DNA of 37,158 bases from Actinomycetota bacterium (GCA_030838265.1 JAUTXA010000036.1:1-37158), one strand, 5' to 3'; positions 11,040-31,078 are shown, counted from the stretch's first letter. Notes: generated by a model from the letters alone, not told the origin. Made by a program: numbers and translations.

Positions 11040-11768
11040 ATGGGCAAGGCATCGAGCTCGAAGAAGGTGGCACGCGCCGCCAGCACTGGCGGCGGTCGCA
11101 CCAACCGCGGTCGCACGCCGGTTCTGTACTACGGCGCCCTCTTCATCATCGCTGCTTTGGGCTTCACCGGCATCGCCGTCAGCCGGGGCGCGGGCAAGGC
11201 CAACGCCAAGGTCCCGCCCACCACGGCCGACCACTGGCATGCCGCCTTCGGCTTCTACTTCTGCGACCAGTTCGCCGCCGCTCCGGGCGACAAGGCCGGC
11301 GACCTCTACGGCATCCACACCCACGCTGACGGACTGATTCACATCCATCCCTTCTCGTCCCGCACCACCGGCAAGAACGCCACCCTGGGGGCGATCATCA
11401 CCGACATCGGCGGCACGCTCAGTGAGACCAGGGTGGGCATCCCCGGCCACAAGACGATGAAGAACGGCGACAAGTGCGGCAAGGACGTCGGCAAGGTCCG
11501 GGTCATCGTGTGGGACAACGCAGCGGCTAAGAAGGGCAAGCCGGTCGCCGGCGATCCCAAGTCGCTCCGGCTGAAGAACGGCGAGATCATCACCACCGCC
11601 TTCGCTCCCGCCAACAAGGACATCCCCAAGCCGCCCTCGGCCAAGGACGTCGCCAATCCGGGCGACCTCGGCACCACGCCGACGCCGACACCGACGACGG
11701 TCGCAGGCAACAGCTCGTCGACGACGACCCCCGCGGCCTCGTCGACCACCGCGACCACCCTGAGGTGA
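11040..11768 (+). CDS. hypothetical membrane-anchored, His-rich extracytoplasmic protein with Thr/Ser/Pro-rich tail
   Basis: Basic N-terminus followed by one hydrophobic helix (VLYYGALFIIAALGFTGIAV). His cluster DHWHAAFGFYFCD...GIHTHADGLIHIHPF. C-terminal TTPTPTPTTVAGNSSSTTTPAASSTTATT. High GC3 throughout. The stop overlaps the next gene's start (GTGA). Confidence 0.7.
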   Translation: MGKASSSKKVARAASTGGGRTNRGRTPVLYYGALFIIAALGFTGIAVSRGAGKANAKVPPTTADHWHAAFGFYFCDQFAAAPGDKAGDLYGIHTHADGLIHIHPFSSRTTGKNATLGAIITDIGGTLSETRVGIPGHKTMKNGDKCGKDVGKVRVIVWDNAAAKKGKPVAGDPKSLRLKNGEIITTAFAPANKDIPKPPSAKDVANPGDLGTTPTPTPTTVAGNSSSTTTPAASSTTATTLR

Positions 11769-15404: not shown

Positions 15405-16643
15405 TCAGGCTGTTGCGGCGCCCCGCACGATGTTCCAGTTGGCCCAGATGGCCGGCGTGCTGCAGCTGCTGCCGACGCCGACGAGCCCGCCCGAGTTGGT
15501 CAGCACCACGCCGCTGCCCGACTTGATCACGGCGAAGGCGCCCGAGCCGGCCGCCGTGGCCGCCGTGCTGAGGGCCGGGGGCATGGTGTTGTTGCCGACG
15601 GCGAAGGGGCTGAGGCCGCCGTTGCTGTCGACGATGTAGCCGCCGGTGCCATTGGGGAGCATGACGATGCTGCGGGCCTTGTCGGCGCCGAAGTACTTGC
15701 CGCCCCGGGCGTCGGGCATCCCGCCGAAGGGATGGAGGCCGCCGAAGCCGTCGAGCTCGTAGCCCCGTGCGCTGCTCGTGGGGTCGACCGCCAGGTCGCG
15801 GGCGATGTCCCAGTTCTTCCAGTAGGGAGTGCCGGTGATCGCGGGCGCGTTGCCGAAGGGGTGGATGCCGCCGAAGGCGTCGAGGACGTAGGCCCCCTTG
15901 AGGTCGGGCGTCACGGCCAGGGCGTTGGCGATGTCCCAGTTCTTCCAGTACCCGCCGCCGGAGAGCATCGGCAGGCCGCCGACGGGATGGATGCCGCCGA
16001 AGCCGTCGAGGACGTAGCCCTTGCCAGTCGAGTTCACGGCCAGGTCGCGGGCGATGTCCCAGCCGAAGTAGGGAGCGCCGCTGAGGTTGGGAGCCGAGCC
16101 GAGGTTGTGGATGCCGCCATAGCCGTCGAGGAACCAGCCGTTGGGCGGCGTGCACTCGTTGAGTCCGGTCGGGCCGCTGATGGCCGGGCCCTTGATGAAG
16201 TCGAAGGTGATCCAGAGGTTGCCGTCGTCGCCGTTGACGGCGCCGATGCCCACCCGGTTGTAGTCACCGAGCTCGTTGGCCTTGTGGCCGGGCGAGTTCC
16301 AGAAGGCGTTCTGCAGGGACGGCACGCTGGGGCCGTAGCCGACGTTCTCGCCGACCCTGGTCCAGTCGTTCGTCACCCGGGTCGAGATCTGCGACACGTA
16401 GTTGGGGTTGTGGCCGAGCACCCGCTGGGCCGCCATCTGGCCCGTCCACCCGCGGGCCACGCTGCTGGCCGCCGAGTCGAACACCATCGGGCCCAGGCCG
16501 CTGCCCGCACGCGCCTGGTTGAGCACCTTGAGGAAGGCCATCTCGGCCTCGCCGGAGTAGCTGGCGGCGGCCGCCGGACGGGCCGGTGCCAGTACCAGGA
16601 CCGTCATGAGCACTGCCAGGAAGGAGAGAGCCAGCCGTCGCAT
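15405..16643 (-). CDS. secreted CAP/SCP-domain protein with a C-terminal 6-copy ~42-aa repeat module
   Basis: ATG at 16643 gives signal peptide MRRLALSFLAVLMTVLVLAPARPAAAA. CAP-type region (…GHNPNY…GENVGYG…WNSPGHKANE…VGIGAV). Tandem GYVLDG[FY]GGIH…PY[FW]xxWDIAR repeats follow. Confidence 0.85.
   Translation of the reverse strand: MRRLALSFLAVLMTVLVLAPARPAAAASYSGEAEMAFLKVLNQARAGSGLGPMVFDSAASSVARGWTGQMAAQRVLGHNPNYVSQISTRVTNDWTRVGENVGYGPSVPSLQNAFWNSPGHKANELGDYNRVGIGAVNGDDGNLWITFDFIKGPAISGPTGLNECTPPNGWFLDGYGGIHNLGSAPNLSGAPYFGWDIARDLAVNSTGKGYVLDGFGGIHPVGGLPMLSGGGYWKNWDIANALAVTPDLKGAYVLDAFGGIHPFGNAPAITGTPYWKNWDIARDLAVDPTSSARGYELDGFGGLHPFGGMPDARGGKYFGADKARSIVMLPNGTGGYIVDSNGGLSPFAVGNNTMPPALSTAATAAGSGAFAVIKSGSGVVLTNSGGLVGVGSSCSTPAIWANWNIVRGAATA
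15408..16139 (-). repeat. protein-level tandem repeat module, 6 copies (last two degenerate)
   Basis: Copies begin GWFLDGYGGIH, GYVLDGFGGIH, AYVLDAFGGIH, GYELDGFGGLH, GYIVDSNGGLS and GVVLTNSGGLV. Period 40-43 aa. Confidence 0.85.
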
Positions 16644-16687
16644 ACACAGGGTCTCGGCCCGATCCGTGCCTGACTTGAGAAAGTATC

Positions 16688-16708
16688 TAGTCACAACGTA
16701 GTCACAAC
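16688..16708. promoter_or_regulatory. exact tandem direct repeat TAGTCACAAC-g-TAGTCACAAC (11-bp phasing) in the AT-richer divergent intergenic region
   Basis: Read directly at 16688-16697 and 16699-16708. On the minus strand it reads GTTGTGACTAcGTTGTGACTAgaTACTTT. That gives a possible TTGTGA(-35)/16 nt/TACTTT(-10) promoter for the CAP-repeat gene. The repeat could also be an operator. Confidence 0.4.
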
Positions 16709-16827
16709 CGGAATGCCCGATTGGTGGACCGGAAGAGCCCGACCGAAGGGGTCAGAAGGGGCGCCGGTGGTAAGGTCCGAACCGGTTTCCAGGCGTGCTC
16801 GCCCAAGCAAGGAGTGCTGCGAGACCA

Positions 16828-17646
16828 GTGTCGATCGATACCGCTCCGGCGGCGCGCATGGGCGAGCTGTGGAGCGCCCGGCAGCTTCTGCGCAACCTCA
16901 CGGTGCGCGAGCTCAAGGTCCGCTACAAGCGGTCGGCCATCGGGTTCCTCTGGAGCCTGGTGAACCCATTGCTGCAGATGGCGGTTTTCTCGCTGGTCTT
17001 CGGCAAGTTGTTCAGCGCCAGCAAGACCATCCCCCAGTTCCCCATCTTCTTCATCGTCGCTTTCCTCCCGTGGGCCTTCTTCCAGGGCTCGGTGCAGAAC
17101 TCGACGGGCGCCATCGTGGGCAACGCCAACCTGGTCAAGAAGGTGTACTTCCCCCGCGAGGTGCTCCCGGTGGCGACGATGCTGGCCCAGTTCGTCCACC
17201 TGCTCCTGGCTGAGCTGGTGCTCTTCGTCGTCCTGGCCATCGGGGGCAACGACTTCCTGCCCTACCTCCCGGTGTTCGTCATCGCCACCGTCATCGTGGT
17301 GGTGCTGGCCACCGGCTTCGCCATGCTCTTCGCCGCTCTCAACACCGCGTTCCGCGACGTCCAGGAGCTATCCGGCGTCCTGTTCCTCGTGTGGTTCTAC
17401 GCCACCCCGGTCGTCTATCCGCTGAGCCTGGTGCCGTCCAAGTGGCGTTGGGTGCTCAGCCTCAACCCCATGACCCACGTGGTGCGGCTCTACCGCTACG
17501 CCCTCTACCCGGTGCCGCGGGCGGGCGGGTTCGCCTGGCCCCCGGTCACGGTGGTCGCCGCCGGCGCCGCCTTTGCCGTCGCCGCCCTCGTGCTCGGCTA
17601 CGTGGTCTTCGGCCGCATGGCCGCCAACTTCGCCAAAGAGGTCTGA
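16828..17646 (+). CDS. wzm: ABC-2 type polysaccharide exporter permease (Wzm/TagG-like)
   Basis: [49 protein letters not shown] is the typical Wzm N-terminal motif, followed by 6 hydrophobic segments. Start ambiguous: GTG 16795, GTG 16828 (AAGGAG 13 nt upstream, chosen) or ATG 16858. Confidence 0.85.
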
Positions 17647-18851
17647 TGGCGGAGCTGGCCCCGGGCTCGGTGGTGGTGCGCGACCTGTGGGAGTCGTTCA
17701 CCATCTACCACGACCGCCCGGTGAGCCTGAAGGACCGCCTGGTCGGGAAGCGCAAGACCTCGACCGAGCAGTTCTGGGCCCTCAAGGGGGTGAGCGTCGA
17801 GGTCGAGCCGGGCGAGACCCTGGCCCTCGTCGGGGCCAACGGCTCGGGCAAGTCGACCCTGCTCAAGGTCATGGCCCGCATCCTCGAGCCCGACAAGGGG
17901 TCGGTCGATATCGGGGGCCGGCTGGCCGCCCTGCTCGAGGTCGGCGCCGGCTTCCACGGCGACCTGACGGGACGGGAGAACGTCTACCTCAACGCCTCCA
18001 TCCTCGGCTTCGGCCGCAGGGAGGTCGACCGCATCTTCGACGACATCGTCGCCTTCGCCGAGCTCGAGCGCTTCATCGACACGCCGGTGCGCACGTACTC
18101 GTCGGGGATGTACGTGCGTCTCGGCTTCGCCGTCGCCATCCACCTCGATCCCCACATCCTGCTGGTCGACGAGGTCCTGGCCGTGGGCGACGCCCGCTTC
18201 CAGGCTCGCTGCTTCGACCGCATCCGGGCCCTGCAGCGCGAGGGCCGCACGATCATCTTCGTCACCCACGACACCGACCTGGCCGCGTCGCTGTGCAAGC
18301 GGGCCGTGCTGCTGGTCGAGGGCGAGATCGATCAGATGGGCCCGAGCCACCTCGTCGTCGACCGCTACCGCGAGCTCTACACCGCCGAGGGCACGCATGA
18401 CATGGGCCACTTCACCGGCGGTGAGGTCCACGGCACCGGCGACATGCGGCTCAGTGGCATTCGGCTCATCACTGAGGCGGGCGACCCGGTCGTGAAGGTC
18501 GGTGAGGCCCTGTCGGTCACCTACGCGGCCGAGGCCACGACCGAGATCGAGCGCCCGGTGTTCGGCCTCATCGTGCGGGCCCCTGATGGCACCTACCTCT
18601 ATGACACCAACACCTTGTGGCGGAACCACGACACCGGGACCTACCGCTCGGGCGACAAGGTGGTCGTGCGCTTCGACCTGAAGGCTCACCTCTTGCCAGG
18701 GATGTACCTGATCACGGTGGCCGCGGCCAACGAGGACGGGCGCGTGGCGTATGACTGGCACACCGATGTGCTGGCCTTCGAGGTTCGGGGCAACACCCAC
18801 GCGCGGGGCATCGCCGCCCTCGACGCCGACGTCACCATCGAGGCCCTGTGA
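17646..18851 (+). CDS. wzt: polysaccharide ABC exporter ATPase with extra C-terminal domain (Wzt/TagH-like)
   Basis: ATG at 17646 overlaps the wzm stop. Walker [10 protein letters not shown], signature YSSGMYVRL, Walker [13 protein letters not shown]. About 150 additional beta-rich C-terminal residues (from about nt 18408). 401 aa. Confidence 0.9.
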
Positions 18852-19714
18852 CGAGCGACGACCTCGAGCTGTCGTACTACGAGTCGCGCCAGTTCGACGC
18901 CGAGCACATCTGGCAGGTCCGCAGCCACTACCTCCAGTTCGTCGAGGGGGCCTCGTTCCTCGTCGAGCTGGGCTCAGGCCGCGGCGAGTTCCTGGCCAAG
19001 GTGGCGGGCGGCATCGACCGCGTCCTCGGCGTCGACAGCGAGGCGGCGATGGTCGAGCGGGCCCGGGCGCTCGGCGTCGACGTCGTCCACGACGACGCCC
19101 TGCACTGGCTCGAGTCGACCGACGACCGGCCCGACGCCCTGGTCGCCGCCCACCTGGTCGAGCACCTGGCCGTCGAGGACGCCAGCCGCCTTTTCGAGGG
19201 GGCGGCGCGGGTGCTGGCCTCGGGCGGGGTGCTCGTCGCCGTGACGCCCAACCCGTCCTGCCTCTCAGTCCTGCTCCAGGACTTCTGGAGCGACCCAACC
19301 CACGTGCGCCCCTACACCCTCGACCTCCTCCAGTTTCTGACCCGCCGGGCCGGGCTCGAGGTGGTCGACGCCGGCGGCAACCCCCTCGACGTCCCCGGCC
19401 CACCCGCCCACCTGCCGGTCGACAACGTGATGACACCGTGGGGCGCGCCTTCGGCCGCCGTCGAGCCCGAGGCGCGGCGGACGCAGTCGCGCCTGAAGGC
19501 CGGGCTCACAGCCGGCGTGACCGCCGGCGTCGACGACGAGGTGGCCCGGCTGCGGCGCGCCGTCGAGCTGCTGGTCCACGACATGCACACCCTCGCCGGC
19601 CAGATCAACACGATCGGCCACCAGGCGGCCGAGGCGAGGGACGGCGTCAACCGGACCCTCGCCCACCTCTACGGCCCCAACGAGATCTACGTGGTCGCCC
19701 GCCAGCCGGCATGA
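18848..19714 (+). CDS. class I SAM-dependent methyltransferase with helical C-terminal extension
   Basis: GTG overlaps the wzt stop. SAM motif [22 protein letters not shown] and [11 protein letters not shown] are typical of Methyltransf_11/23. The C-terminus [46 protein letters not shown] looks coiled-coil-like. Confidence 0.85.
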
Positions 19715-21069
19715 CGCCCTTCGTTCGCGTCGTCGTCCTCAACTTCAACGGCGGAGACCTCACCACCGACTGCCTCACCCACCTCGAGCAGGTTGACTGG
19801 CCCGCCGACCGGCTCGAGCTGGTGATGGTCGACAACTCGCCCGCTGACGGCGTGGCCGAACGGGTGCGTCGCGACCACCCGACCGTCCGCATCGTCACCG
19901 CGCCCCGGAACCTGGGCTTCGCAGGCGGCAACGACTTGGCCCTGCGCGACCTCGGCGCCGCCGACTACGTCGCCCTCCTCAACAACGACGCCACCATCGA
20001 GCCGGGCTGGCTCCGCCCACTGGTCGCAGCTCTCGAAGCCGACCCGAGCCTGGCCGCGGCCAACTCGAAGATCGTGTTCGCGGCCGAGTTCGTCGAGGTC
20101 GAGCTGTCGACGTCGGGCTTCACACCGGGGCGGGGCGACCCGCGTGACCTGGGCGTGCGCCTCAGTGGCGTGCGGGTCGACGGCACCGACCAGTGGCGCG
20201 ACACGCAACGGGCCGAGGGGTGGTGGGGGATCGAGCACGGCGGGCCCGACGAGGTGACCTTCGAGTGGTCGAAGTCATCGGCTGTCCTGCGCGTCCCCGT
20301 GACGGTCGGCGACGATCGGTCCGCCTCGCGGCGCGTCGAGCTGAAGTTGGCGGCGGAGCGAGAAAAGTCGGTCACCATCGGCTCCGGTGACGAGTCGGTC
20401 TCGGTGACGGTGGGCCCCACGCCGGCCTGGCATGAGATCCCCCTGGGGGGCAAGGCCTTCGACGTCATCAACAACGTGGGGTCGGTCCTCATCGAGGGAG
20501 GGTGGGGGGCAGACCGCGGCTACCTCGAGCCCGACCGTGGCCAGTACGACGAAGCGGCCGAGGTCTTCGCCTGGTGCGGGGGCAGCGTCCTCCTGCGCCG
20601 CAAGTACCTCGACGAGGTTGGCGTCTTCGACGAGCGCTTCTTCCTCTACTACGAGGACTTCGACCTCTCGTGGCGCGGTCGCCTGGCCGGGTGGCGCTAC
20701 CAGTACGTCCCCGAGTCGCGGGTCCGCCACATCCACAGCGCATCGAGCGGTGAGGCGTCGGCCATCTTCCAGCACCACGTCGAGCGCAACCGGCTGCTCA
20801 TGCTGACCAAGAACGCACCGGCGTGGCTGGCCCGCCAGGCCGCCTTCCGCTTCGTCCTCTCGACCGCTTCGTACGGACGGCGCGACGTCGTCAGCCCCGT
20901 CCTGCGCGGCCACCGGCCCAACACCACGCTGACGGCGCGGCGCGTCCGCTCGTTCGTCGACTACCTTCGCCTCCTACCTCACGCCCTCCGGGAGCGGCGC
21001 CGGGTGCGGGCCCATCAGGTGGTGCCGGACGAGCAGCTGCTGTCGTGGGCCGTGCCCCCTCGATCATGA
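19711..21069 (+). CDS. GT2 glycosyltransferase with a ~125-aa internal insertion
   Basis: ATG at 19711 overlaps the methyltransferase stop. VRVVVLNFNGGDLTTDCL, LVMVDNSPADG, NLGFAGGND and LLNNDA. After the insert: DRGQYDEAAEVFAWCGGSVLLRR…FFLYYEDFDLSWR…RHIHSAS. 452 aa. Confidence 0.85.
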   Translation: MTPFVRVVVLNFNGGDLTTDCLTHLEQVDWPADRLELVMVDNSPADGVAERVRRDHPTVRIVTAPRNLGFAGGNDLALRDLGAADYVALLNNDATIEPGWLRPLVAALEADPSLAAANSKIVFAAEFVEVELSTSGFTPGRGDPRDLGVRLSGVRVDGTDQWRDTQRAEGWWGIEHGGPDEVTFEWSKSSAVLRVPVTVGDDRSASRRVELKLAAEREKSVTIGSGDESVSVTVGPTPAWHEIPLGGKAFDVINNVGSVLIEGGWGADRGYLEPDRGQYDEAAEVFAWCGGSVLLRRKYLDEVGVFDERFFLYYEDFDLSWRGRLAGWRYQYVPESRVRHIHSASSGEASAIFQHHVERNRLLMLTKNAPAWLARQAAFRFVLSTASYGRRDVVSPVLRGHRPNTTLTARRVRSFVDYLRLLPHALRERRRVRAHQVVPDEQLLSWAVPPRS

Positions 21070-22637: not shown

Positions 22638-22644
22638 CCGAGGG

Positions 22645-25482
22645 TTGGGTGACGCCCGGCCCCGCGGGGCGTGTGCCATCCTGAGCGGGGGCGGAGTCGA
22701 CCACACTGGTGGTGAGCGCGCCCTGAGACGACATCCTCGAACCCCCCGGTCCCTGAGAGCGGCTGTCGCTCTGGTCGTCACGATGGCGGCAGCAGTGCTC
22801 GGGCCAGGGGCAGCGCCGGCGGCCCGCGCCGACACGTCGTTCGTCTTCCACGGTGGCGGCTTCGGTCACGCCCTCGGCATGAGCCAGTACGGCGCCATGG
22901 GGATGGCCCGGTCCGGGTTCACCTACCAGCAGATCCTCACGCACTACTACACGGGCATCACCGTCTCTGCTCCCGGGGTCCCGGCCACCATCCGAGTCGG
23001 GCTGCGCCAGGGGTCGGAGTCCTTCCGCCTCACCGGCACCGGAAACTTCAACTTCTCGGCCACCAAGGGCGGGCCGGCGGTGGCCATCGGCAGCGCCAAC
23101 CAGTGGTGGGCCATCACCCGAACGGGGACGTTGCTCTATCTGACCGGCCCCGACAACGTCAAACGGGGGCCGTACTCGCAGGTGTGGCAATCGACCAACG
23201 CCGGTGAGCACCTCAAGCTGGTCGAGTGGAACGGGTCGCAATGGGTCACCACCGGCGACTACGCCCACGGCCAGATGCAGGTCGTCGCCAACAGCGGCGG
23301 CTCGGCGACCTACGTGGTGCTCCAGGACCTCACCCTCGAGCAGTACGTCGCCGGCATCGGTGAGGTCCCGAGCACCTGGCCCACCGCGGCCAAGCAGGCC
23401 CAGGCGGTGGCGGCCCGCACCTACGGGGCCCGGCTCATCACGACCGGAGGCCGGTCGAACTGCGGCTGCGACCTGTTCGACGACACGCGCGACCAGGTGT
23501 ACTCGGGCTGGGCGACCGAGCAGCAGTCGGGCTGGACGAGCGCCGTCAACTCGACCCCCGGCGTCGTCGCGACCTATCAGGGCACCCTCATCACGGCCTA
23601 CTACTCGTCGTCGTCCGGTGGCTGGACGGAGGACAACGAGAAGGTCTGGGGGGGCAGCGCCATCGCCTACCTGCGCGGCGTCGAGGACCCCTACGACAAC
23701 CAACCCGAAAACCCCAACTACCGGTGGACGCGCACGTTCTCCGGCACCGCCCTCTCGAGCACCCTGAACGGCTGGCTGGCGGCGCGGGGGCGGGCCCAGA
23801 TCGGAACCGTGCAGTCGGTGGTCTACCCGGCGCCCCGCGGCCACGGCGGGAGGATCATCATCCCCACTGCCGGCGGCGGCGGAGCCACCTTCAACGGCAC
23901 CAGCGGCCAGGCCCGGCTCAGCGGTGAGGACCTGCGCGGTGCGCTCGGCTTCCCGGGGTCGATGATCGTCGACCCCAGCAACGTGGCCACCACCGACGTC
24001 TCGGGCGGATGGGTCGTCGACGCGCTGGGCGGCTTCCACTCCTTCGGCGGCGCCGCGTCCCCGAGTGGCGGCCGCTACCGATCGACGTGGACGGTGCGCG
24101 ACGCCACGGCACGCGGCGACGGCCGGGGCGGTTACGTCCTCGACGGCAACGGGACCCTCGACACCCTCAACGGCGCGCCGGGCCTGGCCAAGGTGCCCGC
24201 CTTCGGCAGTGACATCGCCCGTTCGATCGCCCTCTCCGGCAATGGCGACCAGGGTCAGATCCTCGATGGCTACGGCGGCCTGCACCCCATCGGCACCGCC
24301 ACCAGCCTGGGGCCTGGCCCCTACTGGAACGGGTGGGACATCGCCCGGGCCGTGGCCCTCACCGCCGACGGCAAGGGCGCCTACGTCCTCGACGGCTACG
24401 GAGGCATCCACCCCGTCGGCACGGCGCCGGCCGTCAGCGGTGCTCCCTACTTCGGCTTTGACATCGCCCGCGACATCGCGTTGCGCCGGGGCGGAGGCGG
24501 TTACGTCCTCGACGGCTATGGCGGCCTCCATGCCTTCGGTGGCGCTCCAGCCGCGACAGGCGGGAGCTACCACGGTGGCAGCGACACCGCCGCCGCTCTG
24601 GTGCTGCGCAGCCGGGGCGCCGGCGGCTACGTCGTCGAGCGCGGCGGTCCGCTGGTGGCCATGGGTGGCGCACCGGTGCTCACCGTGCCCGACTCCTTCA
24701 CCAACAACGCGGCCCGGGCCGTGGTGCTGCCCCCCGACCCGGGGGCTTACGTCATGGCCGGCTCCGGTCAGGTCGCGGCCGCCGGGCTAGCGCCCGGCGT
24801 CACCGGCTCGCCGTCATTCAGCAGCGACATCGGCCGCGACCTGGTGATGCGCCCCAACGCCACCGGCTACGAGGTCGACGGCTACGGCGGCATCCACGAG
24901 ATCGGGGCGGGGGCCCACGTCCACACCGGCGGGCAGTTCTTCTCGGGGCAGGATCGCATCCGGGCCATCGCCCTCACCCCGGACGGAACCCAGGGCTACA
25001 CCCTCGACAAGAACGGCACGCTCTACAACTTCGACGGCGCCCCGGCGGTCACGGTGACAGGCAGCTGGTGGGCCGACAGCGCCGACATCGCTCGGGCCCT
25101 GACCCTGACAGGCAGCGCCAAGGGCTACCTGCTCGACGAGGGGGGAGCGCTGCACGAGTTCGGCGGTGCCCCGGCCCTCTTCAGCGGCCCGCCCTCGTGG
25201 TACGCGCCGGGCCAGAACAAGTTCGTGGCCTTCGCCCTCGCTCCCGACCAGACCAGCGGCTACGTGCTCGAGAGCAACGGGACGCTGCATCCGTTCGGCT
25301 CGGCGCCCGCCGCCACCGCGCCGGGCGTGACGGCGCCGGCTCGCGACGTCATCCTCCGCCCCGATGGCCGCTCCGGGTGGGTGGTCGACGCGGGCGGCGG
25401 CCTCCGTCCCTTCGGCGGGGCGCCACCGGTGAGCGGTGGCCTCGGCAGCGGCCAGGTGGGACGGGCCGGCACCAACGGTTAG
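22645..25482 (+). CDS. secreted SpoIID/LytB-domain protein with a C-terminal 12-copy ~42-aa repeat array
   Basis: SpoIID-type core (FVFHGGGFGHALGMSQYGAMGMA…LEQYVAGIGEVPSTWP…AVAARTYG…VYSGW…YSSSSGGWTE). Hydrophobic signal-like segment LRAAVALVVTMAAAVLGPGAAPAARA. Start uncertain: in-frame TTG 22645, CTG 22723 (best signal-peptide geometry) or ATG 22783. The end is firm (TAG 25480-25482). Confidence 0.85.
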   Translation: MGDARPRGACAILSGGGVDHTGGERALRRHPRTPRSLRAAVALVVTMAAAVLGPGAAPAARADTSFVFHGGGFGHALGMSQYGAMGMARSGFTYQQILTHYYTGITVSAPGVPATIRVGLRQGSESFRLTGTGNFNFSATKGGPAVAIGSANQWWAITRTGTLLYLTGPDNVKRGPYSQVWQSTNAGEHLKLVEWNGSQWVTTGDYAHGQMQVVANSGGSATYVVLQDLTLEQYVAGIGEVPSTWPTAAKQAQAVAARTYGARLITTGGRSNCGCDLFDDTRDQVYSGWATEQQSGWTSAVNSTPGVVATYQGTLITAYYSSSSGGWTEDNEKVWGGSAIAYLRGVEDPYDNQPENPNYRWTRTFSGTALSSTLNGWLAARGRAQIGTVQSVVYPAPRGHGGRIIIPTAGGGGATFNGTSGQARLSGEDLRGALGFPGSMIVDPSNVATTDVSGGWVVDALGGFHSFGGAASPSGGRYRSTWTVRDATARGDGRGGYVLDGNGTLDTLNGAPGLAKVPAFGSDIARSIALSGNGDQGQILDGYGGLHPIGTATSLGPGPYWNGWDIARAVALTADGKGAYVLDGYGGIHPVGTAPAVSGAPYFGFDIARDIALRRGGGGYVLDGYGGLHAFGGAPAATGGSYHGGSDTAAALVLRSRGAGGYVVERGGPLVAMGGAPVLTVPDSFTNNAARAVVLPPDPGAYVMAGSGQVAAAGLAPGVTGSPSFSSDIGRDLVMRPNATGYEVDGYGGIHEIGAGAHVHTGGQFFSGQDRIRAIALTPDGTQGYTLDKNGTLYNFDGAPAVTVTGSWWADSADIARALTLTGSAKGYLLDEGGALHEFGGAPALFSGPPSWYAPGQNKFVAFALAPDQTSGYVLESNGTLHPFGSAPAATAPGVTAPARDVILRPDGRSGWVVDAGGGLRPFGGAPPVSGGLGSGQVGRAGTNG
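24007..25479 (+). repeat. protein-level tandem repeat array, about 12 copies (two 6-copy modules)
   Basis: Copies begin GWVVDALGGFH, GYVLDGNGTLD, GQILDGYGGLH, AYVLDGYGGIH, GYVLDGYGGLH, GYVVERGGPLV, AYVMAGSGQVA, GYEVDGYGGIH, GYTLDKNGTLY, GYLLDEGGALH, GYVLESNGTLH and GWVVDAGGGLR. Confidence 0.85.
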
Positions 25483-27257
25483 TCGGCAGACAGCCACCAG
25501 ACCCAGACGCCACCGGTCCGCTCCGGGCGACGACCCAACAGCAGCGTGAGGTAGTCGACGACGCGGGATTCGTTGGCGATGGGCCCGACGATCACGGCCC
25601 GGGTCTTCCAGCCGCGGATCTCGGCGCGCATGGCGTCGAGTGTGGGCTCGTCCGTCCCGATCGTCTCGCCGCCCTTCAGCTGGCCCAGGGCCCGTCCCAG
25701 GATCGTGGGGACGGGACCGAAGGCGGGACGGTTGTCGACCCGGTCGGGCCGGATGCTGTATCCGGACGGCATCTTGAAGCGCATGTCGGCCGCCGCCTGC
25801 CAGATCATGGGGGCGTCGTCGGTGACGTCGCCGGTGCTCCACGGCGCGACGACCGCCACCGAGCCGGGTGGCAGCCGATGCACGCCGCCGCCGGCCGTGA
25901 AGAAGGACGGAACGGGCGACGGGGTGTACGGAGGCGCCAGCGGGATCAGGGGGAGGAGCACCACCGCCGTCACCGCCAGGCCCGCGACCAAGCGACGGCC
26001 GCGCCGGGCCAGGACGGCGTCGACAAACAGGCCGATCAACAGAGCCAGAAAGACCCACGCGTAGAGGATGAGCCGGCCCGGCAGCATGTGGGTGGCCAAG
26101 GGCACCTCGCGCACCAGCCGCCACGGCAGCTTGACGGCCAGGTAGTCGTGGCCGGCCACGTGCAGATAGGGCCCCAACGAGAGCACGGCGATGCCGAGGG
26201 CCGAAAGGGCAGACACCACGACGATGGGCCGGCGCCGCCACACCACGGCCATGGCGCCCGCCAGGACGAGGAGGGGAAGCCCGACATAGGCGTTCCACTC
26301 GACGCCGATCGTGGTCGGCGTGAAGCGGCGGTAGATGTGGGCCGCCGACGACGGCGAGATCCACTGCTGGAAGGTGGGCACCACGAACCCGGCCAGGTCG
26401 CTGACGAAGGTGTCCTCGGGCTGGATGGCACCGGGGCCCAGATGCTGGGGGCCGCGGAACTGGGCGACCAGGGGCCAGGCGCACAGGACCCCGGCGATCA
26501 CCCCGCCCACGGCGAGCGCCTTGAGGGCGTAGGCCGCCTTGGCCCGAACCCGTCCCCGGTACAGCACAACCAGACCAACCGAAGTGAGGCCGGCCACGAG
26601 GGCCTCGGCCAGCAGCATCTCCTCGGCCAGCAGGAACTGGGCCGTCACGAGCAGGCCCAGGGCGGCGCCCGTCTTCCAGAGCGCCCAGCGCTGCTCGACG
26701 AGGAGCTCGTGGAGGACGACGAGCAGCAGCGGGGGCACGAAGGCCACGATCAGGTGGGCGTGGGAGTACGACTGCAGCACCATGTAGGGGGAGAACCCGT
26801 AGACGAGTCCGGCCAGCACGGCCGCGGCCCGGTGGTCGACGAAGCGTCGCACCGCGATGTAGGCGGCGAAGGCCGACAGGGCGTAGCCCGCCGTGACCAA
26901 CACGTTGTACGAGACGATTGGGCCGAAGACGGCGGTGATCGGTGCCAGCACCACGCCGGCGAGCGGCATGGCCGTGTTCCACATCACGTTGAAGCCCGCC
27001 GGGTAGTTCATGTGGTCGGTGAACCACGGGTTCTGGCCGTGGGCCAGGGCATGGGGAACCCAGCGGAGGTACCAGATGAACAGAGGTGGGTCACCGAGCC
27101 CGGCGAAACGAGCGCTGGGGTCGACCCAAGCCCCCCTCAGGAAGGCGGTGGCCAAGGCCGAGAACATCACGAGGACGCCCAAGTCGGGCAGGAGACGAGC
27201 CCGCCACCCGGGCCCGCTGGTCAGGCCCGGAGGCTGCGTTGGCTCGTCGTCCGTCAT
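25479..27257 (-). CDS. large polytopic membrane protein, GT-C-like putative extracytoplasmic glycosyltransferase
   Basis: About 12 or more hydrophobic helices. The first predicted loop carries acidic/aromatic GDPPLFIWYLRW…GQNPWFTDHMNYP. Soluble C-terminal ~130 aa. Start is ATG 27257 or GTG 27269. The family assignment is tentative. Confidence 0.72.
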   Translation of the reverse strand: MTDDEPTQPPGLTSGPGWRARLLPDLGVLVMFSALATAFLRGAWVDPSARFAGLGDPPLFIWYLRWVPHALAHGQNPWFTDHMNYPAGFNVMWNTAMPLAGVVLAPITAVFGPIVSYNVLVTAGYALSAFAAYIAVRRFVDHRAAAVLAGLVYGFSPYMVLQSYSHAHLIVAFVPPLLLVVLHELLVEQRWALWKTGAALGLLVTAQFLLAEEMLLAEALVAGLTSVGLVVLYRGRVRAKAAYALKALAVGGVIAGVLCAWPLVAQFRGPQHLGPGAIQPEDTFVSDLAGFVVPTFQQWISPSSAAHIYRRFTPTTIGVEWNAYVGLPLLVLAGAMAVVWRRRPIVVVSALSALGIAVLSLGPYLHVAGHDYLAVKLPWRLVREVPLATHMLPGRLILYAWVFLALLIGLFVDAVLARRGRRLVAGLAVTAVVLLPLIPLAPPYTPSPVPSFFTAGGGVHRLPPGSVAVVAPWSTGDVTDDAPMIWQAAADMRFKMPSGYSIRPDRVDNRPAFGPVPTILGRALGQLKGGETIGTDEPTLDAMRAEIRGWKTRAVIVGPIANESRVVDYLTLLLGRRPERTGGVWVWWLSAD

Positions 27258-27319
27258 GGGCGGGCGCACTCTACCGTCCGTCCCTTCAGTTTTTTCGACG
27301 GTGTGCCGATACCCGACTA

Positions 27320-29158
27320 GTGCGTGCGGCGAGGCGTCTTCCGGGTCTATCGACCCGCTCCCTTTTGATTGCAGTCGCGGTCCTGGCGGCTCTGATGTTG
27401 AGCCCGGGACGAGCCGAGGCGGCCAGCGGCAACTTGATCGGTCGGGTGACCGACGCCGCCACCGGATCCGGGGTCTCTGGGGTCACCATCTGGGCCGGGG
27501 GGTCGCCGACCGCGCTGACCGACGGCTCGGGCAACTACACGCTGACCCTCCCGGCGGGCCAGGGCTACAACGCCCTCGCCGACAAGGCCGGCTATGCCAA
27601 GGCGCACCGATACAGCGTCGCCGTGTCGGGCGGTTCCAACACCAGGCTCGACTTCGCCATCACCACCCAGCAGGGCCGGATCACCGGTCGGCTGGTCGAC
27701 ACCGCGGGCCGGGGCGTCGCCGGACAAGCCCTCGCCGACTCGATCGAAGGAACCGGCTTCAACGCCACCAACACCGACAGCAACGGCTTCTTCACCCTCG
27801 ACCGCTTGGCCCCCATGTCGTATTACGTGCACGGCTTTCCGGCCAGCTCGTCGCAGCCGTCGACCGTCATCAACGGGATCCGGGTCTCGAACGGGGCCAC
27901 GACCTCGGTCACCCTCGTGTCGGGCGGCAACGCCGGGCGCATCTCCGGCCAGGTGACGCAGCCCAACGGCGCACCGCTGGCCAACGCCCAGATCTACATC
28001 GACGGCAACACGACGACGTCGATGTGGAACGGGGCCACCGACGCCAACGGCGTCTACAGCTCGGGGCTGCTGTCGGCCGGCACCTACAACGTCCATCTCT
28101 CCGACGTCGCCCCCTACGGCAACCAGGTGATCTACGGGCAGACGATCTCGGCCGGTCAGACCCTGGGTGGCGTCAGCTTCCGGCTGTCGAGCAACCTCGG
28201 CGCCATCCGGGGCTGGGTCCGCGACACCCTGGGCAACGCCATCGCCGGGGCTCAGGTCGATGCCTTCTCGTCGGCCAAGAGCGGGCCGTGGGGTTGGCAG
28301 ACCGTCACCACCGACAGCAACGGGTGGTATGCCCTCAACCTGCTCATGCCCAGCCCGAGCTACAAGCTCTGGGTCCACTCGCCCAATCGACCCGTGCTCA
28401 CAGGCGACGGCATCCCGGCCACGGCCGGCAGCGTCACCCAGCCCTACAACTTCACGTACACCGTGCCGGGCCGGGCCACCGTGTCCAACCCCAAGGGCGG
28501 CTACTACGTCCTCTCCGGCGAGGGCACCGTCTTCTCCCGGGGCGGCGCTCCCCTCTTCGGCTCGCCTCACTTCGGGTCTGACATCGCCCGAGCCCTGGCG
28601 GTGATGCCCGACGGCCAGGGCTACATCGTGCTCGACGGCTTCGGTGGGCTGCACAAGTTCGGCAGTGCCGCCAGCGGTGCCATGGGAGCACTGGGCGGGG
28701 CCTACTTCGGCTGGGACATCGCCCGCGGCATCGCCATCACCCCGACCGGCACCGGCCTCGACGTGCTCGACGGCTTCGGCGGCGTGCACACCTCGGGCAA
28801 CGCCGTGTCGACCAAGTCGCCCTACTTCGGATGGGACATCGCCCGCGGCCTCGCCCTCTCGCCCACCGGCCTCGGTGTCTACGTGCTCGACGGCTACGGC
28901 GGGGTCCACACCTCGGGTGACGCCATCGCCCGACCGACGCCGTACTTCGGCTGGGACATCGCTCGCTCGGTCGTTATGTCGCCGACCGGCCAGGGCTACG
29001 CCATCCTCGATGGCTTCGGTGGCATCCACACCGCGGGCGACGCCCCGGCACCGAAGGGCAACTCGGGGTACACCAACAAGGACCTGTGGCGGGGCATCGC
29101 CCAGGTCAACGGCGGGTACGCCGTGACCCGCAACGACGGCACCACCATCCCCCTCTAG
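27320..29158 (+). CDS. secreted protein: 4 carboxypeptidase-regulatory-like (CarboxypepD_reg) beta-sandwich domains plus a C-terminal ~6-copy repeat module
   Basis: GTG at 27320 gives a good signal peptide (V/M)RAARRLPGLSTRSLLIAVAVLAALMLSPGRAEA|AS. Four units of the type GRVTDAATGSGVSGVTI…TDGSGNYTL / GRLVDTAGRGVAG…TDSNGFFTL / GQVTQPNGAPLANAQI…TDANGVYS / GWVRDTLGNAIAGAQV…TDSNGWYAL. GYxVLDGFGGxH…YFGWDIAR repeats follow. 612 aa. Confidence 0.85.
   Translation: MRAARRLPGLSTRSLLIAVAVLAALMLSPGRAEAASGNLIGRVTDAATGSGVSGVTIWAGGSPTALTDGSGNYTLTLPAGQGYNALADKAGYAKAHRYSVAVSGGSNTRLDFAITTQQGRITGRLVDTAGRGVAGQALADSIEGTGFNATNTDSNGFFTLDRLAPMSYYVHGFPASSSQPSTVINGIRVSNGATTSVTLVSGGNAGRISGQVTQPNGAPLANAQIYIDGNTTTSMWNGATDANGVYSSGLLSAGTYNVHLSDVAPYGNQVIYGQTISAGQTLGGVSFRLSSNLGAIRGWVRDTLGNAIAGAQVDAFSSAKSGPWGWQTVTTDSNGWYALNLLMPSPSYKLWVHSPNRPVLTGDGIPATAGSVTQPYNFTYTVPGRATVSNPKGGYYVLSGEGTVFSRGGAPLFGSPHFGSDIARALAVMPDGQGYIVLDGFGGLHKFGSAASGAMGALGGAYFGWDIARGIAITPTGTGLDVLDGFGGVHTSGNAVSTKSPYFGWDIARGLALSPTGLGVYVLDGYGGVHTSGDAIARPTPYFGWDIARSVVMSPTGQGYAILDGFGGIHTAGDAPAPKGNSGYTNKDLWRGIAQVNGGYAVTRNDGTTIPL
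28499..29155 (+). repeat. protein-level tandem repeat module, 5 full copies plus 1 truncated
   Basis: PHFGSDIARALAV, AYFGWDIARGIAI, PYFGWDIARGLAL and PYFGWDIARSVVM, each followed by G.(Y/D)(I/V)LDG(F/Y)GG(L/V/I)H. Confidence 0.85.
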
Positions 29159-29176
29159 CGGCGCTCGACTCCGCGG

Positions 29177-31078
29177 TCAGCCCGCGCTGGTGAGGACGAG
29201 GCTGCGCCCCAGGCCCGTCCCCGTATAGGTCAACGACGTCTTCAGGGCCGAAGCGTTGCCGAACGGCCAAACGTCGCCGTTGTTGTCGAGCATCCAACCG
29301 CCGTCGCCCGCCGTGTTCAGCACGATCTGACGGGCCATGTCGGCGTTCGGCGTGTAGTGCGGGTTGTTGAGGTCCGGCGCGCCGCCGAAGGGATGCAGGC
29401 CACCGAGGCCATCGAGCACGTAGCCGCTGACGCCGTCGGGGCGCACGGCGATAGAGCGAGCTATGTCCCACCCGTTCCAATACGCCGCCGCTCTCACTGG
29501 CGTCGCCCGTCCGTAGGCGTGGATGCCGCCGTACCCGTCGAGCTCGTAACCGCCGGTGCCATCGGGAAGGGCGGCGGCATCGCGGGCGATGTCGAAGCCG
29601 AAGTAGGGCGCGCCCAGCGGTTCGACGGCGCCGTTCAGGGCGTGGATGCCGCCGTACCCGTCGAAGACGTAGAGGCCGGTGCCGACGGCCGGGGCGAGAG
29701 CTCGGGCGATGTCCCAGCCGTTCCAGTACGGCCCGCCGACGACGGACGGGGCACCACCCTCGGGGTGGACGGCGCCGTAGCCGTCGAGGACGTAGATGCC
29801 CCCGTTGCCCGCCTTGACCACGTCCCGGGCGATGCGGAAGCCGCTCCAGTAGGCCGAGTGGTAGATCGCCCCTTGGTGGGCCACGGGAAGCAGGCCACCG
29901 TAGGCGTTCATGGTGAGCAGGCCCGGGCCGGTGGCCGCAGGCGTCCACCCCGGCATGGGGTTGGGCGACCCCGCCAGCTCGTAGCGCTGGACGTCGTCGC
30001 GCAAGCGGGCCACGTCGACGTACTCGTGGTCGCCGGGGCACTCGGTCGTGTCGACGTCGCGGTGGCCGATGATGGTGGGCATCGAGATCACCGTCCCCGC
30101 CGGGTAGCGGCTGAACTGGGTGCCGCCGCTGGTGACGTAGATCGACCGCTTGGGGTCGATGCCGTGGTAGCCGAGCTTCCAGCCCAGGAAGTTGACCAGG
30201 CCCGAGCGCATGGCGGCGGTGGGGTAGCCGTTGGCGAAGTCGCCGATGAGGGCCACACCCGTGCTCCCGGTGTTGAAGCCCCCGGCGTGGGCCCCGATCA
30301 CGGCCTTCGTGATGCCTCCGTAGCGCCCCTCGAAGACCTGGCCGAAGCGGTCGACGAGGAAGTTGTACCCGATGTCGCACCAAGCGTTGGTGTGGGTGTG
30401 GAAGTAGTAGAGCCCCCGGACCAACGCCGCCGACTGGCTCGAGGAGTACGAGTTCGAGTTCACGGTGTGGTGGATGACGGCGTAGCGCACGCCGCTGCTG
30501 GCGTACGAGGCCGAGCCGTCACAACCGGAGGCGTAGGTGCGGTAGCTCTCGTCCGCGCCCCACTGGGCGCGCGTGATGATCGCTGGTTGGACGGGCAACG
30601 CCGCCGCCCGGCCCATGGCTCCACCACTCGAGGGTGACGTCGAGTGGATCAGCACCGCCTTGACGTCGGTCGGGCTGCCTTCCTTCACCCTGACGCTGAT
30701 CTCGCGCACCCCGCTGCCCACCCACAAGGGACCGGCACTGGTGATGCTGGTGTGCTCGGGCGAGGTGGGGTCGGGTCCCTCGTCGGGCCCGGCGCCGACC
30801 TCGGTCCACGGCGACCAACGCCCCCCCTGCTTGGCCCGCACCTCGACCGAACCCGTCGGGGCACCCGTCCAGGTGAAGCCGACCATCTCGATGGGCAGCG
30901 GCGCGTGCACGGCGTGGCCCGTGACGGCCCTCGTGGTGGGCACGGCCAGCGTGCGCGATCGCACCTCGGGCTTGGGCGTCGCGGTCGACCCGACCAACCC
31001 GGTGCTCATGAGCGAGGCCAGCGCGGTGAGCACGAGCAGTCTGGTGATGACGTCGCCGCCTCGGCGTCTGGTGCGCAT
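29177..31078 (-). CDS. secreted N-acetylmuramoyl-L-alanine amidase (Amidase_2/PGRP type) with a C-terminal 6-copy repeat module
   Basis: ATG at 31078 (residue 182 of track ORF 29177..31621) gives MRTRRRGGDVITRLLVLTALASLMSTGLVG. Amidase_2 motifs AIITRAQWGADES, YAVIHHTV, WCDIGYNFLVDRFGQVFEGR, GAHAGGFNTGSTGVALIGDF and IIGHRDV..TECPG. Repeats follow. 633 aa. Confidence 0.88.
   Translation of the reverse strand: MRTRRRGGDVITRLLVLTALASLMSTGLVGSTATPKPEVRSRTLAVPTTRAVTGHAVHAPLPIEMVGFTWTGAPTGSVEVRAKQGGRWSPWTEVGAGPDEGPDPTSPEHTSITSAGPLWVGSGVREISVRVKEGSPTDVKAVLIHSTSPSSGGAMGRAAALPVQPAIITRAQWGADESYRTYASGCDGSASYASSGVRYAVIHHTVNSNSYSSSQSAALVRGLYYFHTHTNAWCDIGYNFLVDRFGQVFEGRYGGITKAVIGAHAGGFNTGSTGVALIGDFANGYPTAAMRSGLVNFLGWKLGYHGIDPKRSIYVTSGGTQFSRYPAGTVISMPTIIGHRDVDTTECPGDHEYVDVARLRDDVQRYELAGSPNPMPGWTPAATGPGLLTMNAYGGLLPVAHQGAIYHSAYWSGFRIARDVVKAGNGGIYVLDGYGAVHPEGGAPSVVGGPYWNGWDIARALAPAVGTGLYVFDGYGGIHALNGAVEPLGAPYFGFDIARDAAALPDGTGGYELDGYGGIHAYGRATPVRAAAYWNGWDIARSIAVRPDGVSGYVLDGLGGLHPFGGAPDLNNPHYTPNADMARQIVLNTAGDGGWMLDNNGDVWPFGNASALKTSLTYTGTGLGRSLVLTSAG
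29180..29923 (-). repeat. protein-level tandem repeat module, 6 copies
   Basis: AYWSGFRIARDVV, PYWNGWDIARALA, PYFGFDIARDAAA and AYWNGWDIARSIA. The last two copies are degenerate. Confidence 0.85.

Follow-up and report, generated by a model that had tools for sequence, protein, structure and literature searches.

A repeat of about 42 residues, carried by four secreted proteins encoded within 16 kb, is, to judge from sequence comparisons, the blade unit of a previously uncurated domain family. The fold of the module built from it, a beta-propeller, and its modular use on many unrelated head domains are well supported. We propose, with a probability of roughly 0.55, that the propeller is a lectin-like module that keeps secreted proteins non-covalently on a wall glycopolymer; we infer both the wall retention and the glycopolymer ligand from context. 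If wall binding holds true, the module would play a role comparable to that of SLH or CWB2 domains in other Gram-positive bacteria.

The window (the whole stretch of DNA analysed, 37,158 nucleotides from an Actinomycetota bacterium, GCA_030838265.1 JAUTXA010000036.1:1-37158) is, by its gene content, a Wzm/Wzt, rhamnose-type wall-polysaccharide locus. Its features are listed here in order.

2..13698, no strand assigned: upstream part of the same glycopolymer locus, with a LytR_C protein, RmlA/RmlB/RmlD, UDP-glucose dehydrogenase, epimerases, a GT2, two GT4s and an NTP-transferase
15405..16643, minus strand: protein A, 412 aa, with signal peptide, CAP/SCP domain (aa 39-148) and 6-copy propeller module
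15414..16139, minus strand: propeller module of protein A (aa 169-410), copies 1-4 canonical, 5-6 degenerate
16795-17646, plus strand: wzm, ABC-2 permease
17646-18851, plus strand: wzt, ABC ATPase with Wzt_C glycan-end-binding domain
18848..22637, plus strand: methyltransferase (18848-19714), GT2 (about 19750-21069) and GT4 (about 21063-22637), tightly packed from wzt to gene B
22645..25482, plus strand: protein B, 945 aa, with signal peptide, SpoIID/LytB domain (aa ~223-403) and 12 repeat copies
24007..24738, plus strand: copies 1-6 of protein B (aa 455-698), read as propeller 1
24748..25440, plus strand: copies 7-12 of protein B (aa 702-932), read as propeller 2
25479..27269, minus strand: polytopic membrane protein of 596 aa without a Pfam match, between genes B and C
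27320..29158, plus strand: protein C, 612 aa, with signal peptide, four CarboxypepD_reg-like stretches and propeller module
28505..29155, plus strand: propeller module of protein C (aa 396-612), 5 full copies and a C-terminal stub (GGYAVTRNDGTTIPL)
29177..31078, minus strand: protein D, 633 aa, with signal peptide or signal anchor, Amidase_2 domain (aa 197-350) and 6-copy propeller module
29180..29911, minus strand: propeller module of protein D (aa 390-633)
31130-32278, plus strand: GT4 glycosyltransferase flanking gene D
32214-34640, minus strand: YfhO-like membrane protein flanking gene D

The original prediction had named these four ORFs and their heads, and both were borne out. Pfam and NCBIfam models match the CAP head of protein A (PF00188, E=2.6e-10), the SpoIID/LytB head of protein B (TIGR02669, E=5.7e-52), the four CarboxypepD_reg stretches of protein C (E=1.4e-37) and the Amidase_2 head of protein D (E=9.3e-17); the Pfam domain scan found no enzymatic domain in protein C. 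An identical start is called for the 412-aa protein A in two JGI metagenomes. Read from sequence, all four N-termini are signal-peptide-like (basic, then a hydrophobic stretch, then an Ala-rich end), and an LPXTG motif and a lipobox Cys are absent from all four proteins.

A repeat HMM was built from 10 units and then rebuilt with 546 homologous units. The consensus of the latter is G-Y-V-L-D-G-[WFY]-G-G-[LVI]-H-P-F-G-G-A-P-x6-Y-W-P-G-W-D-I-A-R-G-[ILV]-[AV]-L-x-P-D-G, in agreement with the one first read by eye. Across the whole window, a six-frame scan detected the repeat in the four ORFs and nowhere else, the E-values of single copies falling as low as 1e-24, so that chance is excluded. By this model the CAP protein has 6 copies, four of them strong and two degenerate, the SpoIID protein has 12 and the amidase 6, as originally counted; in the CarboxypepD_reg protein, for which about 6 had been given, there are 5 copies and a 13-residue C-terminal stub, GGYAVTRNDGTTIPL, which probably contributes to a sixth blade. 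Spacing from copy to copy is 39-45 aa. The lowest-scoring copies are the first and the last in each of the four proteins, which accords with the degenerate terminal copies noted earlier. The second six copies of protein B are more degenerate, and the W-D-I-A-R motif is missing in several of them. Canonical blades share the recurrent residues D5, [WFY]7, H11, Y24, W25, W28, D29 and R32. Some features are tied to the position of a blade and recur from protein to protein.

Copy number is quantised across the family at about 6 and about 12 (modes 6 and 10-12), as the proposal of six blades would have it. In 79 related genome loci, 99 of the 127 ORFs have 5-6 copies and another 12 have 9-12; among 144 representatives, 82 have 6 copies, 22 have 5 and 21 have 10-11.

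The repeat was not matched by any curated family. Neither Pfam-A nor NCBIfam models hit it in the four window proteins or in about 250 homologues (sets of 117, 69 and 64; hmmscan cut-off for Pfam-A, E<=0.1), and searches of PDB sequences with a single sequence, a 6-copy profile and a 1-copy profile likewise gave no match. Over the tails there was no HMM match to FG-GAP, LGFP, SLH, CW_binding_1/2, PKD, SH3b or LysM, in keeping with the original view that the repeat resembles none of LGFP, SLH, choline-binding, FG-GAP, PKD or SH3b repeats; where homologues do match FG-GAP, PKD, fn3 or SH3_3, the matches fall in the heads, outside the propeller module. No Pfam lectin family matched the tails, and no lectin was among the significant matches when the PDB was searched with the tail, the 6-copy profile or the 1-copy profile. 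A weak PDB match of the repeat to galectin-1 (E=0.0023, 50 aa), a non-propeller protein, was judged spurious. A likeness to NHL and YWTD blades had also been suggested. YWTD domains are among the closest solved folds, by a generic similarity; the NHL, Ldl_recept_b (YWTD) and YVTN families had no Pfam-A match at E<=0.1 in the four tails or the 117, 69 and 64 homologues.

The fold was predicted by AlphaFold2 from the last 247 aa of protein D (29180-29920), which contain the propeller module, with 117 sequences in the alignment. The model is all-beta (pLDDT 95.1, pTM 0.91), so that the amidase tail is predicted with high confidence to be a closed propeller. Every top Foldseek match in the PDB is a propeller, at E of about 1e-5. 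The best are the six-bladed YWTD domains of LRP6 (3sov, 3sob and 8ffe, TM 0.66-0.68) and LRP4 (0.64); the archaeal S-layer YVTN protein 1l0q is also among the top matches, which are mostly WD40 and YWTD proteins with 10-17% identity in the structural alignment. Because these matches are generic, no function can be transferred from them. DSSP gives each blade of the amidase-tail model three regular strands and a long aromatic loop. Its first strands are GYVLD-like and GG-H-like and its last is a single x-A-R-x-[IV]-x-L strand, an order that, as read from DSSP, is consistent with velcro closure. For the 12-copy tail of protein B, 36 strands are predicted, arranged likewise, and tandem double propellers are the best structural matches; its twelve copies most likely form two propellers in tandem.

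Clustered at 50% identity, the family comprises about 2,000 representatives, mostly from Acidimicrobiia and Dormibacterota. Its carriers show more than 25 head families, among them Peptidase_M23, GH18, S8, SpoIID, CHAP, Amidase_2, GH25, YkuD, Polysacc_deac_1, CAP, fn3/TIG/Ig and GH5/9/43, with FG-GAP and PQQ propellers as further carriers. The majority of heads are wall-active enzymes (M23, CHAP, Amidase_2, SpoIID, GH25, GH18, YkuD and the deacetylase). The module is C-terminal in 118 of the 144 representatives and N-terminal in 16. It sometimes lies directly behind the signal peptide, and with CAP both domain orders occur. Family genes are often grouped, two to six per locus.

Gene context links the module to polymer biosynthesis and export. 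In the window the repeat genes share a locus with Wzm/Wzt, Rml and glycosyltransferase genes, and gene B is the last gene of the tightly packed plus-strand run wzm-wzt-methyltransferase-GT2-GT4. For other genomes we used 79 related loci picked by similarity to the amidase tail. Of the 79, 23-24 have a homologue of Wzm or Wzt within 10 kb, and about two thirds have neither within reach; since many of these loci are orthologous neighbourhoods, the association is not made up of independent events. The gap from the end of a propeller gene to a downstream wzm is 4-90 bp, often 4 bp, in three lineages: Acidimicrobiia (with FG-GAP heads), Dormibacterota (with GH18 heads) and Chloroflexota-labelled MAGs (with CAP). 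Among the other neighbours, homologues of the 596-aa membrane protein occur in 3 of the 79 loci and CofD, a neighbour of genes in the window, in none.

Phages and toxins carry the module too. In two viral contigs the protein encoded directly after the tape-measure gene has four N-terminal repeat copies, diverged to 34-37% identity, and one of the two has a further match, to a PHROG 'minor tail protein' family; a curated phage collection gave no match. A 2,999-aa Rhs-repeat protein has the module at its start. We take these phage-tail and Rhs-toxin fusions as independent pointers to cell-surface recognition. Gene context, together with the phage and toxin fusions, thus lends strength to the original prediction of a targeting or binding domain, while the binding itself is something we infer.

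In the mechanism we propose, a mobile, non-catalytic module on secreted proteins of monoderm-type lineages, mainly Acidimicrobiia and Dormibacterota, would act as a multivalent lectin-like binder that recognises a wall-linked glycopolymer and holds the attached proteins non-covalently. The likeliest ligand would be the rhamnose- and uronic-acid-type polysaccharide of the surrounding locus, with Wzm and Wzt (16795..18851) as exporter of this candidate polymer, after which an LCP enzyme would join it to peptidoglycan. The repeated blade residues could provide each propeller with as many as 4-6 equivalent sites, and avidity for a repetitive polymer would replace a covalent anchor. Proteins so retained would include peptidoglycan amidases, SpoIID/LytB, M23, CHAP, GH25, GH18, YkuD and CAP proteins, and non-enzymatic Ig-like arrays. 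From strand order, the aromatic and acidic residues would lie on one face. The residues conserved in every blade may instead have a structural role, as the tetrad residues do in WD40 repeats, and not contact a ligand.

The propeller might bind peptidoglycan itself, for example GlcNAc/MurNAc strands in the way of LysM or SH3b, which would give substrate targeting with no need of a secondary polymer. Most identifiable heads do act on peptidoglycan or GlcNAc polymers (M23, CHAP, Amidase_2, SpoIID, GH25, YkuD, GH18, Polysacc_deac_1), beta-propeller lectins that bind GlcNAc exist (tachylectin-2 and PVL), and a cavity that may accept GlcNAc is present in the receptor-binding protein of phage phi11. 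We nevertheless consider this rather unlikely, since it leaves unexplained why, in three lineages, the module's genes are repeatedly and tightly linked to those for Wzm/Wzt and glycosyltransferases, and since many carriers are without a peptidoglycan-active domain (CarboxypepD_reg arrays, fn3/TIG/Ig, S8, GH5/9/43, FG-GAP and PQQ propellers). Phage tail and Rhs fusions would also argue against it, if, as is usual, they aim at strain-variable surface polymers and not at buried peptidoglycan. A general carbohydrate-binding module (CBM) for exogenous polysaccharides or environmental glycans, bringing enzymes to their substrates and not to the cell's own wall, has a low probability in our estimate: polysaccharide-degrading heads are a small minority, wall-remodelling and non-enzymatic heads dominate, and the genes sit in biosynthetic, not catabolic, loci. 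Against this must be set the GH5, GH9, GH43 or GH18 heads of some representatives and the abundance in the repeat of conserved aromatics, which are typical of CBMs and lectins. That GH5, GH9 and GH43 heads act on exogenous polysaccharides fits surface display as well as a substrate-binding CBM.

Propellers are common protein-interaction scaffolds, and the mostly WD40/YWTD Foldseek matches, the YVTN propellers of the archaeal S-layer protein 1l0q, the lack of a catalytic domain in protein C and the grouping of family genes would all suit a platform for protein-protein contacts or self-assembly, either as an S-layer-like lattice or by docking to a membrane or wall protein such as the 596-aa and YfhO-like neighbours. 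We give little credence to such a platform, because near-identical residues in each blade point to several equivalent small-ligand sites and not to one asymmetric protein interface, and because the candidate membrane partners are not conserved beside the family (the 596-aa protein, as above, in 3 of 79 loci). A catalytic role for the propeller, for example as a lyase, lactonase or glycosidase of the six-bladed class, is very improbable, and so is allosteric control of the hydrolase to which it is attached. A His and an Asp are conserved in each blade, and many six-bladed propellers are enzymes, but catalytic propellers have one asymmetric active site, whereas in the module one set of residues recurs from blade to blade, with decay of the terminal blades; moreover, the module is also found doubled in tandem, within phage tail proteins and next to heads without enzymatic function, and it has no match to an enzyme family.

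Retention on a wall glycopolymer, the reading we prefer, has parallels in known systems. SLH domains (Bacillus, Paenibacillus and Clostridia; ligand, pyruvylated secondary cell wall polymer) likewise place one module on many secreted proteins with unrelated heads, amidases, glycosidases, proteases and structural proteins among them, and in both cases surface retention would be non-covalent, with no sortase signal, and the ligand a wall-linked polysaccharide. Ligand binding is proven for SLH, whereas for the propeller it is proposed; SLH is a helical motif of ~55 aa used in threes, while the propeller module is all-beta and six-bladed, has no PF00395 match and occurs in different phyla. The CWB2 proteins (PF04122, Cwp of Clostridioides difficile) combine varied functional domains with a common anchor. 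They bind PSII, and the PSII biosynthetic locus adjoins the cwp genes (PMC4973711), a placement beside a polymer locus like that in the window. CWB2, however, has an alpha/beta fold with three repeats that trimerise and is unrelated in sequence, and its PSII binding has been measured, whereas the propeller's ligand is suggested by neighbouring genes. LGFP repeats (PF08310, Corynebacteriales) are also short actinobacterial tandem repeats, C-terminal on secreted wall-associated hydrolases and presumed wall anchors; their anchoring is itself presumed, and their motif and period differ from those of the propeller module, which has no Pfam match.

Among solved folds the closest are the YWTD (LDL-receptor class B) and NHL/YVTN propellers, with a similar repeat length (40-44 aa) and likewise six blades, but the signature motifs of the module, GYVLDGxGGxH and YWxGWDIAR, differ from theirs. 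The propeller lectins (tachylectin-2, the fucose lectins AAL/RSL, PLL/PHL, PVL) share the proposed principle, in that near-identical blades with aromatic-lined sugar sites give multivalent avidity towards repetitive glycans. They differ in having 5, 6 or 7 blades and in being mostly stand-alone, whereas the module is fused to wall enzymes; they have no detectable sequence relation to it and are absent from the top 50 structural matches. A propeller that serves in the recognition of Gram-positive wall polymers is known from phage phi11, whose receptor-binding protein uses one with five blades and a putative GlcNAc site (PMC6115969).

Four proteins encoded in the window carry the same C-terminal tandem repeat of about 42 aa (the module) behind four different head domains. 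The ORFs are present where the original prediction placed them, the heads that it named are recognised by Pfam and NCBIfam models, and all four N-termini read as signal peptides from the sequence:

15405-16643 (-): protein A, CAP head (E=2.6e-10)
22645-25482 (+): protein B, SpoIID/LytB head (TIGR02669, E=5.7e-52)
27320-29158 (+): protein C, four CarboxypepD_reg stretches (E=1.4e-37)
29177-31078 (-): protein D, Amidase_2 head (E=9.3e-17)

The start of the 412-aa protein A is called identically in two JGI metagenomes. LPXTG motif and lipobox are absent from all four proteins.

A repeat HMM was seeded with 10 units and built a second time from 546 homologous units. It counts 6 copies each in the amidase and the CAP protein, those of the latter being 4 strong and 2 degenerate; the SpoIID protein has 12, and the CarboxypepD_reg protein has 5 and a stub of 13 residues. 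The period is 39-45 aa, and a six-frame scan of the 37 kb found no further copies outside the four ORFs. The 546 units give the consensus G-Y-V-L-D-G-[WFY]-G-G-[LVI]-H-P-F-G-G-A-P-x6-Y-W-P-G-W-D-I-A-R-G-[ILV]-[AV]-L-x-P-D-G, in which D5, G8, H11, G14 and R32 are each conserved at more than 90%. Since HMM counts and consensus agree with them, the consensus and copy numbers previously read by eye are correct. Recent intragenomic duplication was considered as the origin of the four tails (the module-bearing C-terminal parts) and rejected, the tails being mutually only 38-46% identical.

The module had been predicted to lie outside existing repeat families such as LGFP, SLH and FG-GAP, and the Pfam-A, NCBIfam and PDB sequence searches gave it no credible assignment. 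No Pfam-A or NCBIfam model falls on the repeat at E<=0.1 in the four window proteins, nor does any in sets of 117, 69 and 64 individually scanned homologues. PDB sequence searches with the 247-aa amidase tail and with 6-blade and 1-blade profiles gave no credible match; hits to galectin-1, a xylanase and Fdc1 were dismissed as short, weak and not repeated. Sources that give the homologues a name label them 'hypothetical protein' or after their head, and full-text literature searches found no description of a propeller-type wall-binding domain in Actinobacteria or phages. The family is uncurated, with no detectable sequence link to NHL, YWTD, YVTN, FG-GAP or lectin propellers or to established wall-binding repeats. 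New domain families are no rarity in metagenomic lineages; the beta-propeller fold and the proposed wall-targeting job are of already known kinds, and what is new is the family itself.

With the amidase tail as query, a word-indexed search recovered 474 proteins; a profile search run exhaustively over 1.84 billion representatives recovered 2,007 at E<=1e-3 (857 at E<=1e-30), and at least 530 encoding stretches turned up when one genome per species was scanned. The repeat is not confined to the window's genome, and about 2,000 clusters at 50% identity bear it. Carriers are overwhelmingly MAGs, which are labelled as Acidimicrobiia or Actinomycetes, as Dormibacterota or as Chloroflexota, and a few are Thermoleophilia; the cultured carrier is one strain, Salinilacustrithrix flava EGI L10123, with a 6-copy member at ~2.408 Mb of NZ_CP133888 (L043). 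Copy number is quantised across the family. Among 127 ORFs from 79 related genome loci, 99 have 5-6 copies, 12 have 9-12 and one has 15, and diverse representatives (144 proteins) have 6 copies in 82 cases, 5 in 22 and 10-11 in 21. Penultimate and terminal blades have position-specific features common to different proteins, an example being the W-less A-D-x-A-R of blades A4, B1-5 and D5, and therefore the six-blade unit moves as a whole.

The last 247 residues of the amidase (29180-29920 (-)) were modelled with AlphaFold2 from a 117-sequence alignment, giving an all-beta structure with pLDDT 95.1 and pTM 0.91. Each repeat contributes three regular strands, mapping to x-A-R-x-[IV]-x-L, G-Y-V-L-D and G-[ILV]-H-P, and a 16-residue loop that bears A-P-x6-Y-W-x-G-W-D. 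The chain starts with strands of the second and third types and leaves a lone first-type strand for last, an order with the look of a velcro-closed six-bladed ring, from which we infer that the predicted ring closes. Foldseek against PDB returned propellers only, at generic E values (~1e-5) and 10-17% identity, the best TM scores (0.64-0.68) being to the six-bladed YWTD domains of LRP6 and LRP4; BFVD matches were just as generic. Model confidence and the propeller-only list support the six-bladed propeller that had been guessed as the predicted fold; the suggested likeness to NHL/YWTD blades is seen at generic similarity in fold but not in sequence. By DSSP, the regular strands of the model number only three per blade, an irregular A-P-x-[VL] segment and the long aromatic loop taking the place of the usual outer fourth. 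A missing regular fourth strand is unusual among propellers.

The 12-copy tail of the SpoIID protein was modelled at pLDDT 83.6 and pTM 0.57 with 36 strands in the pattern of the amidase tail, and its best Foldseek matches are proteins with two tandem propellers, which points to two propellers of six blades each. A single 12-bladed ring was rejected as the probable fold, given the quantisation of the family at six and these tandem matches.

In other genomes, too, the module sits on many unrelated exported heads. It is C-terminal in 118 of the 144 representatives and N-terminal, just behind the signal peptide, in 16. Wall-active heads are Peptidase_M23 (16 of 133), GH18 (7), SpoIID, CHAP, Amidase_2, GH25, YkuD and Polysacc_deac_1; other enzymes are S8 (5), GH5/9/43, NAGPA and arylsulfotransferase; and non-enzymatic heads are CAP, fn3/TIG/Ig arrays and other propellers (FG-GAP, PQQ, DUF5122, Kelch, NHL). 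CAP precedes the propeller in the window protein and comes after it in two loci, L016 (4746-6173 (-)) and L051 (7612-8955 (-)), where the order is signal peptide, propeller, CAP, with wzm directly downstream of the gene. Two to six propeller genes occur in 26 of the 79 loci, and GH18-, M23-fn3-, PQQ-Ig- and CAP-propeller genes are consecutive in the Dormibacterota loci L070 and L049, so that four genes in 16 kb are typical of the family.

The whole window is a wall-glycopolymer locus, the parts of which surround the propeller genes:

2-13698: sugar-nucleotide and glycosyltransferase part, with a LytR_C protein, RmlA/B/D, UDP-glucose dehydrogenase, GT2, two GT4s and an NTP-transferase
13744-15359 (-): CofE (F420-0:gamma-glutamyl ligase) and CofD of F420 biosynthesis, interrupting the polysaccharide locus and adjoining the CAP-propeller gene
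16795-25482 (+): wzm, wzt (with a Wzt_C domain), methyltransferase, GT2, GT4 and the SpoIID-double-propeller gene
25479-27269 (-): 596-aa polytopic membrane protein without a Pfam match, between two propeller genes
32214-34640 (-): 808-aa membrane protein with a C-terminal match to YfhO, adjoining a GT4 and the amidase-propeller gene

Four epimerase/dehydratase genes also lie in 2-13698, and no RmlC was identified there; the gene content of this part implies a polymer that would contain rhamnose and uronic acid. The genes from wzm through wzt, the methyltransferase, GT2 and GT4 to the SpoIID-double-propeller gene lie on one strand with junctions that overlap or measure 8 nt; the last therefore looks co-transcribed with the polymer export genes, and the whole run looks like one operon. 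Chain length in E. coli O8/O9a is controlled by a terminal methyl cap, and by analogy Wzt_C and the adjacent methyltransferase suggest such control here. The 596-aa protein, which has homologues near propeller genes in three of the related loci (L041, L021, L037), may be a glycosyltransferase of GT-C type or an enzyme that modifies the polymer; the YfhO family is tied to teichoic-acid glycosylation.

Elsewhere, Wzm or Wzt homologues are found within 10 kb in 23-24 of the 79 loci and in 12-16 of 38 long loci, counts that overstate independence because similarity to one tail was the basis for choosing the loci, some of which are orthologous neighbourhoods. CofD, a neighbour in the window, is near the family in 0 of the 79. 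Adjacency to wzm recurs in three lineages with different heads, the propeller gene often ending 4-90 bp upstream of it:

Acidimicrobiia, FG-GAP heads: L014, L042, L064, L065, L072, L018
Dormibacterota, GH18 heads: L067, L058
Chloroflexota-labelled MAGs, CAP: L016, L051

The six Acidimicrobiia loci encode, 4 bp upstream of wzm-wzt, a conserved protein of ~850 aa with a seven-blade-type FG-GAP region and the six-blade module, which may serve the export system as a dedicated partner.

Read most economically, the module would be a multivalent, lectin-like propeller that holds exported proteins to a wall-linked glycopolymer by non-covalent binding, and its most likely ligand is the polymer made by the linked Wzm/Wzt locus. 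If the first-type strand is innermost, the G-[WFY]-G turn and the Y-W-x-G-W-D loop would share one face and form four to six equivalent aromatic and acidic pockets, a placement read from strand order only. SLH domains, which bind pyruvylated secondary cell wall polymer, follow a parallel logic of wall-polysaccharide binding. CWB2 repeats bind PSII, the biosynthetic locus of which adjoins genes of the anchored proteins (PMC4973711), so that there, as in the window, genes of anchored proteins lie beside the polymer locus. A phage example is the receptor-binding protein of phi11, a propeller recognising wall teichoic acid and GlcNAc at a putative site (PMC6115969). Direct binding of peptidoglycan or GlcNAc by the module is the likeliest of the rivals and would suit the spectrum of heads, but it leaves unexplained both the wzm linkage and the many heads without activity on peptidoglycan. 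A carbohydrate-binding module (CBM) for exogenous substrates seems less probable, a protein-protein or lattice platform less so again, and a catalytic or regulatory module the least probable.

Retention on a wall glycopolymer may be extended into a wider proposal, to which we give a tentative probability of about 0.4: the module would be the main surface-display system of Acidimicrobiia and Dormibacterota, a six-bladed propeller lectin reading a Wzm/Wzt-exported, rhamnose-type wall polysaccharide, equivalent in function to SLH and CWB2 but wholly unlike them in fold, and phage tail proteins and Rhs toxins would have taken it over for host or target recognition because it reads a lineage-specific surface glycan. 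Both kinds of protein have to recognise a cell surface. P0260, a 2,999-aa polymorphic-toxin-like protein with Rhs repeats, has the module N-terminally (aa ~131-299), with fn3 domains and RHS repeats behind it. In two IMG/VR contigs a pattern scan found four diverged copies at the N-terminus of the protein encoded directly after the tape-measure gene:

L080, 5809-7707: propeller-bearing phage gene, copies scoring 20-33 bits
L081, 5644-8484: propeller-bearing phage gene, the rest matching PHROG 5287 'minor tail protein'; the protein also matches an Ig_Rha78A_N domain

The phage case for surface recognition is thin, because the tail has no tblastn match in 50,697 curated phage genomes.

Abundant in soil and water, Acidimicrobiia and Dormibacterota are almost uncultured, and to our knowledge the building and decoration of their envelopes is essentially unknown. 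Were the module to mark their exported, wall-associated proteome, it would part-annotate several thousand 'hypothetical' proteins at once, tie them to a specific class of polysaccharide loci and extend the short list of Gram-positive wall-anchoring domains by a new fold. It would offer a handle on the surface proteome, wall polymers and phage receptors of abundant, poorly known phyla, with possible uses as a surface-display tag or cell-wall probe for both groups and as a marker predicting the hosts of their phages.

In the second six blades of the SpoIID protein, 24748-25440 (+), most W-D-I-A-R and G-G-x-H signatures are gone, which suggests that binding by this second propeller may be relaxed or altered relative to the first.
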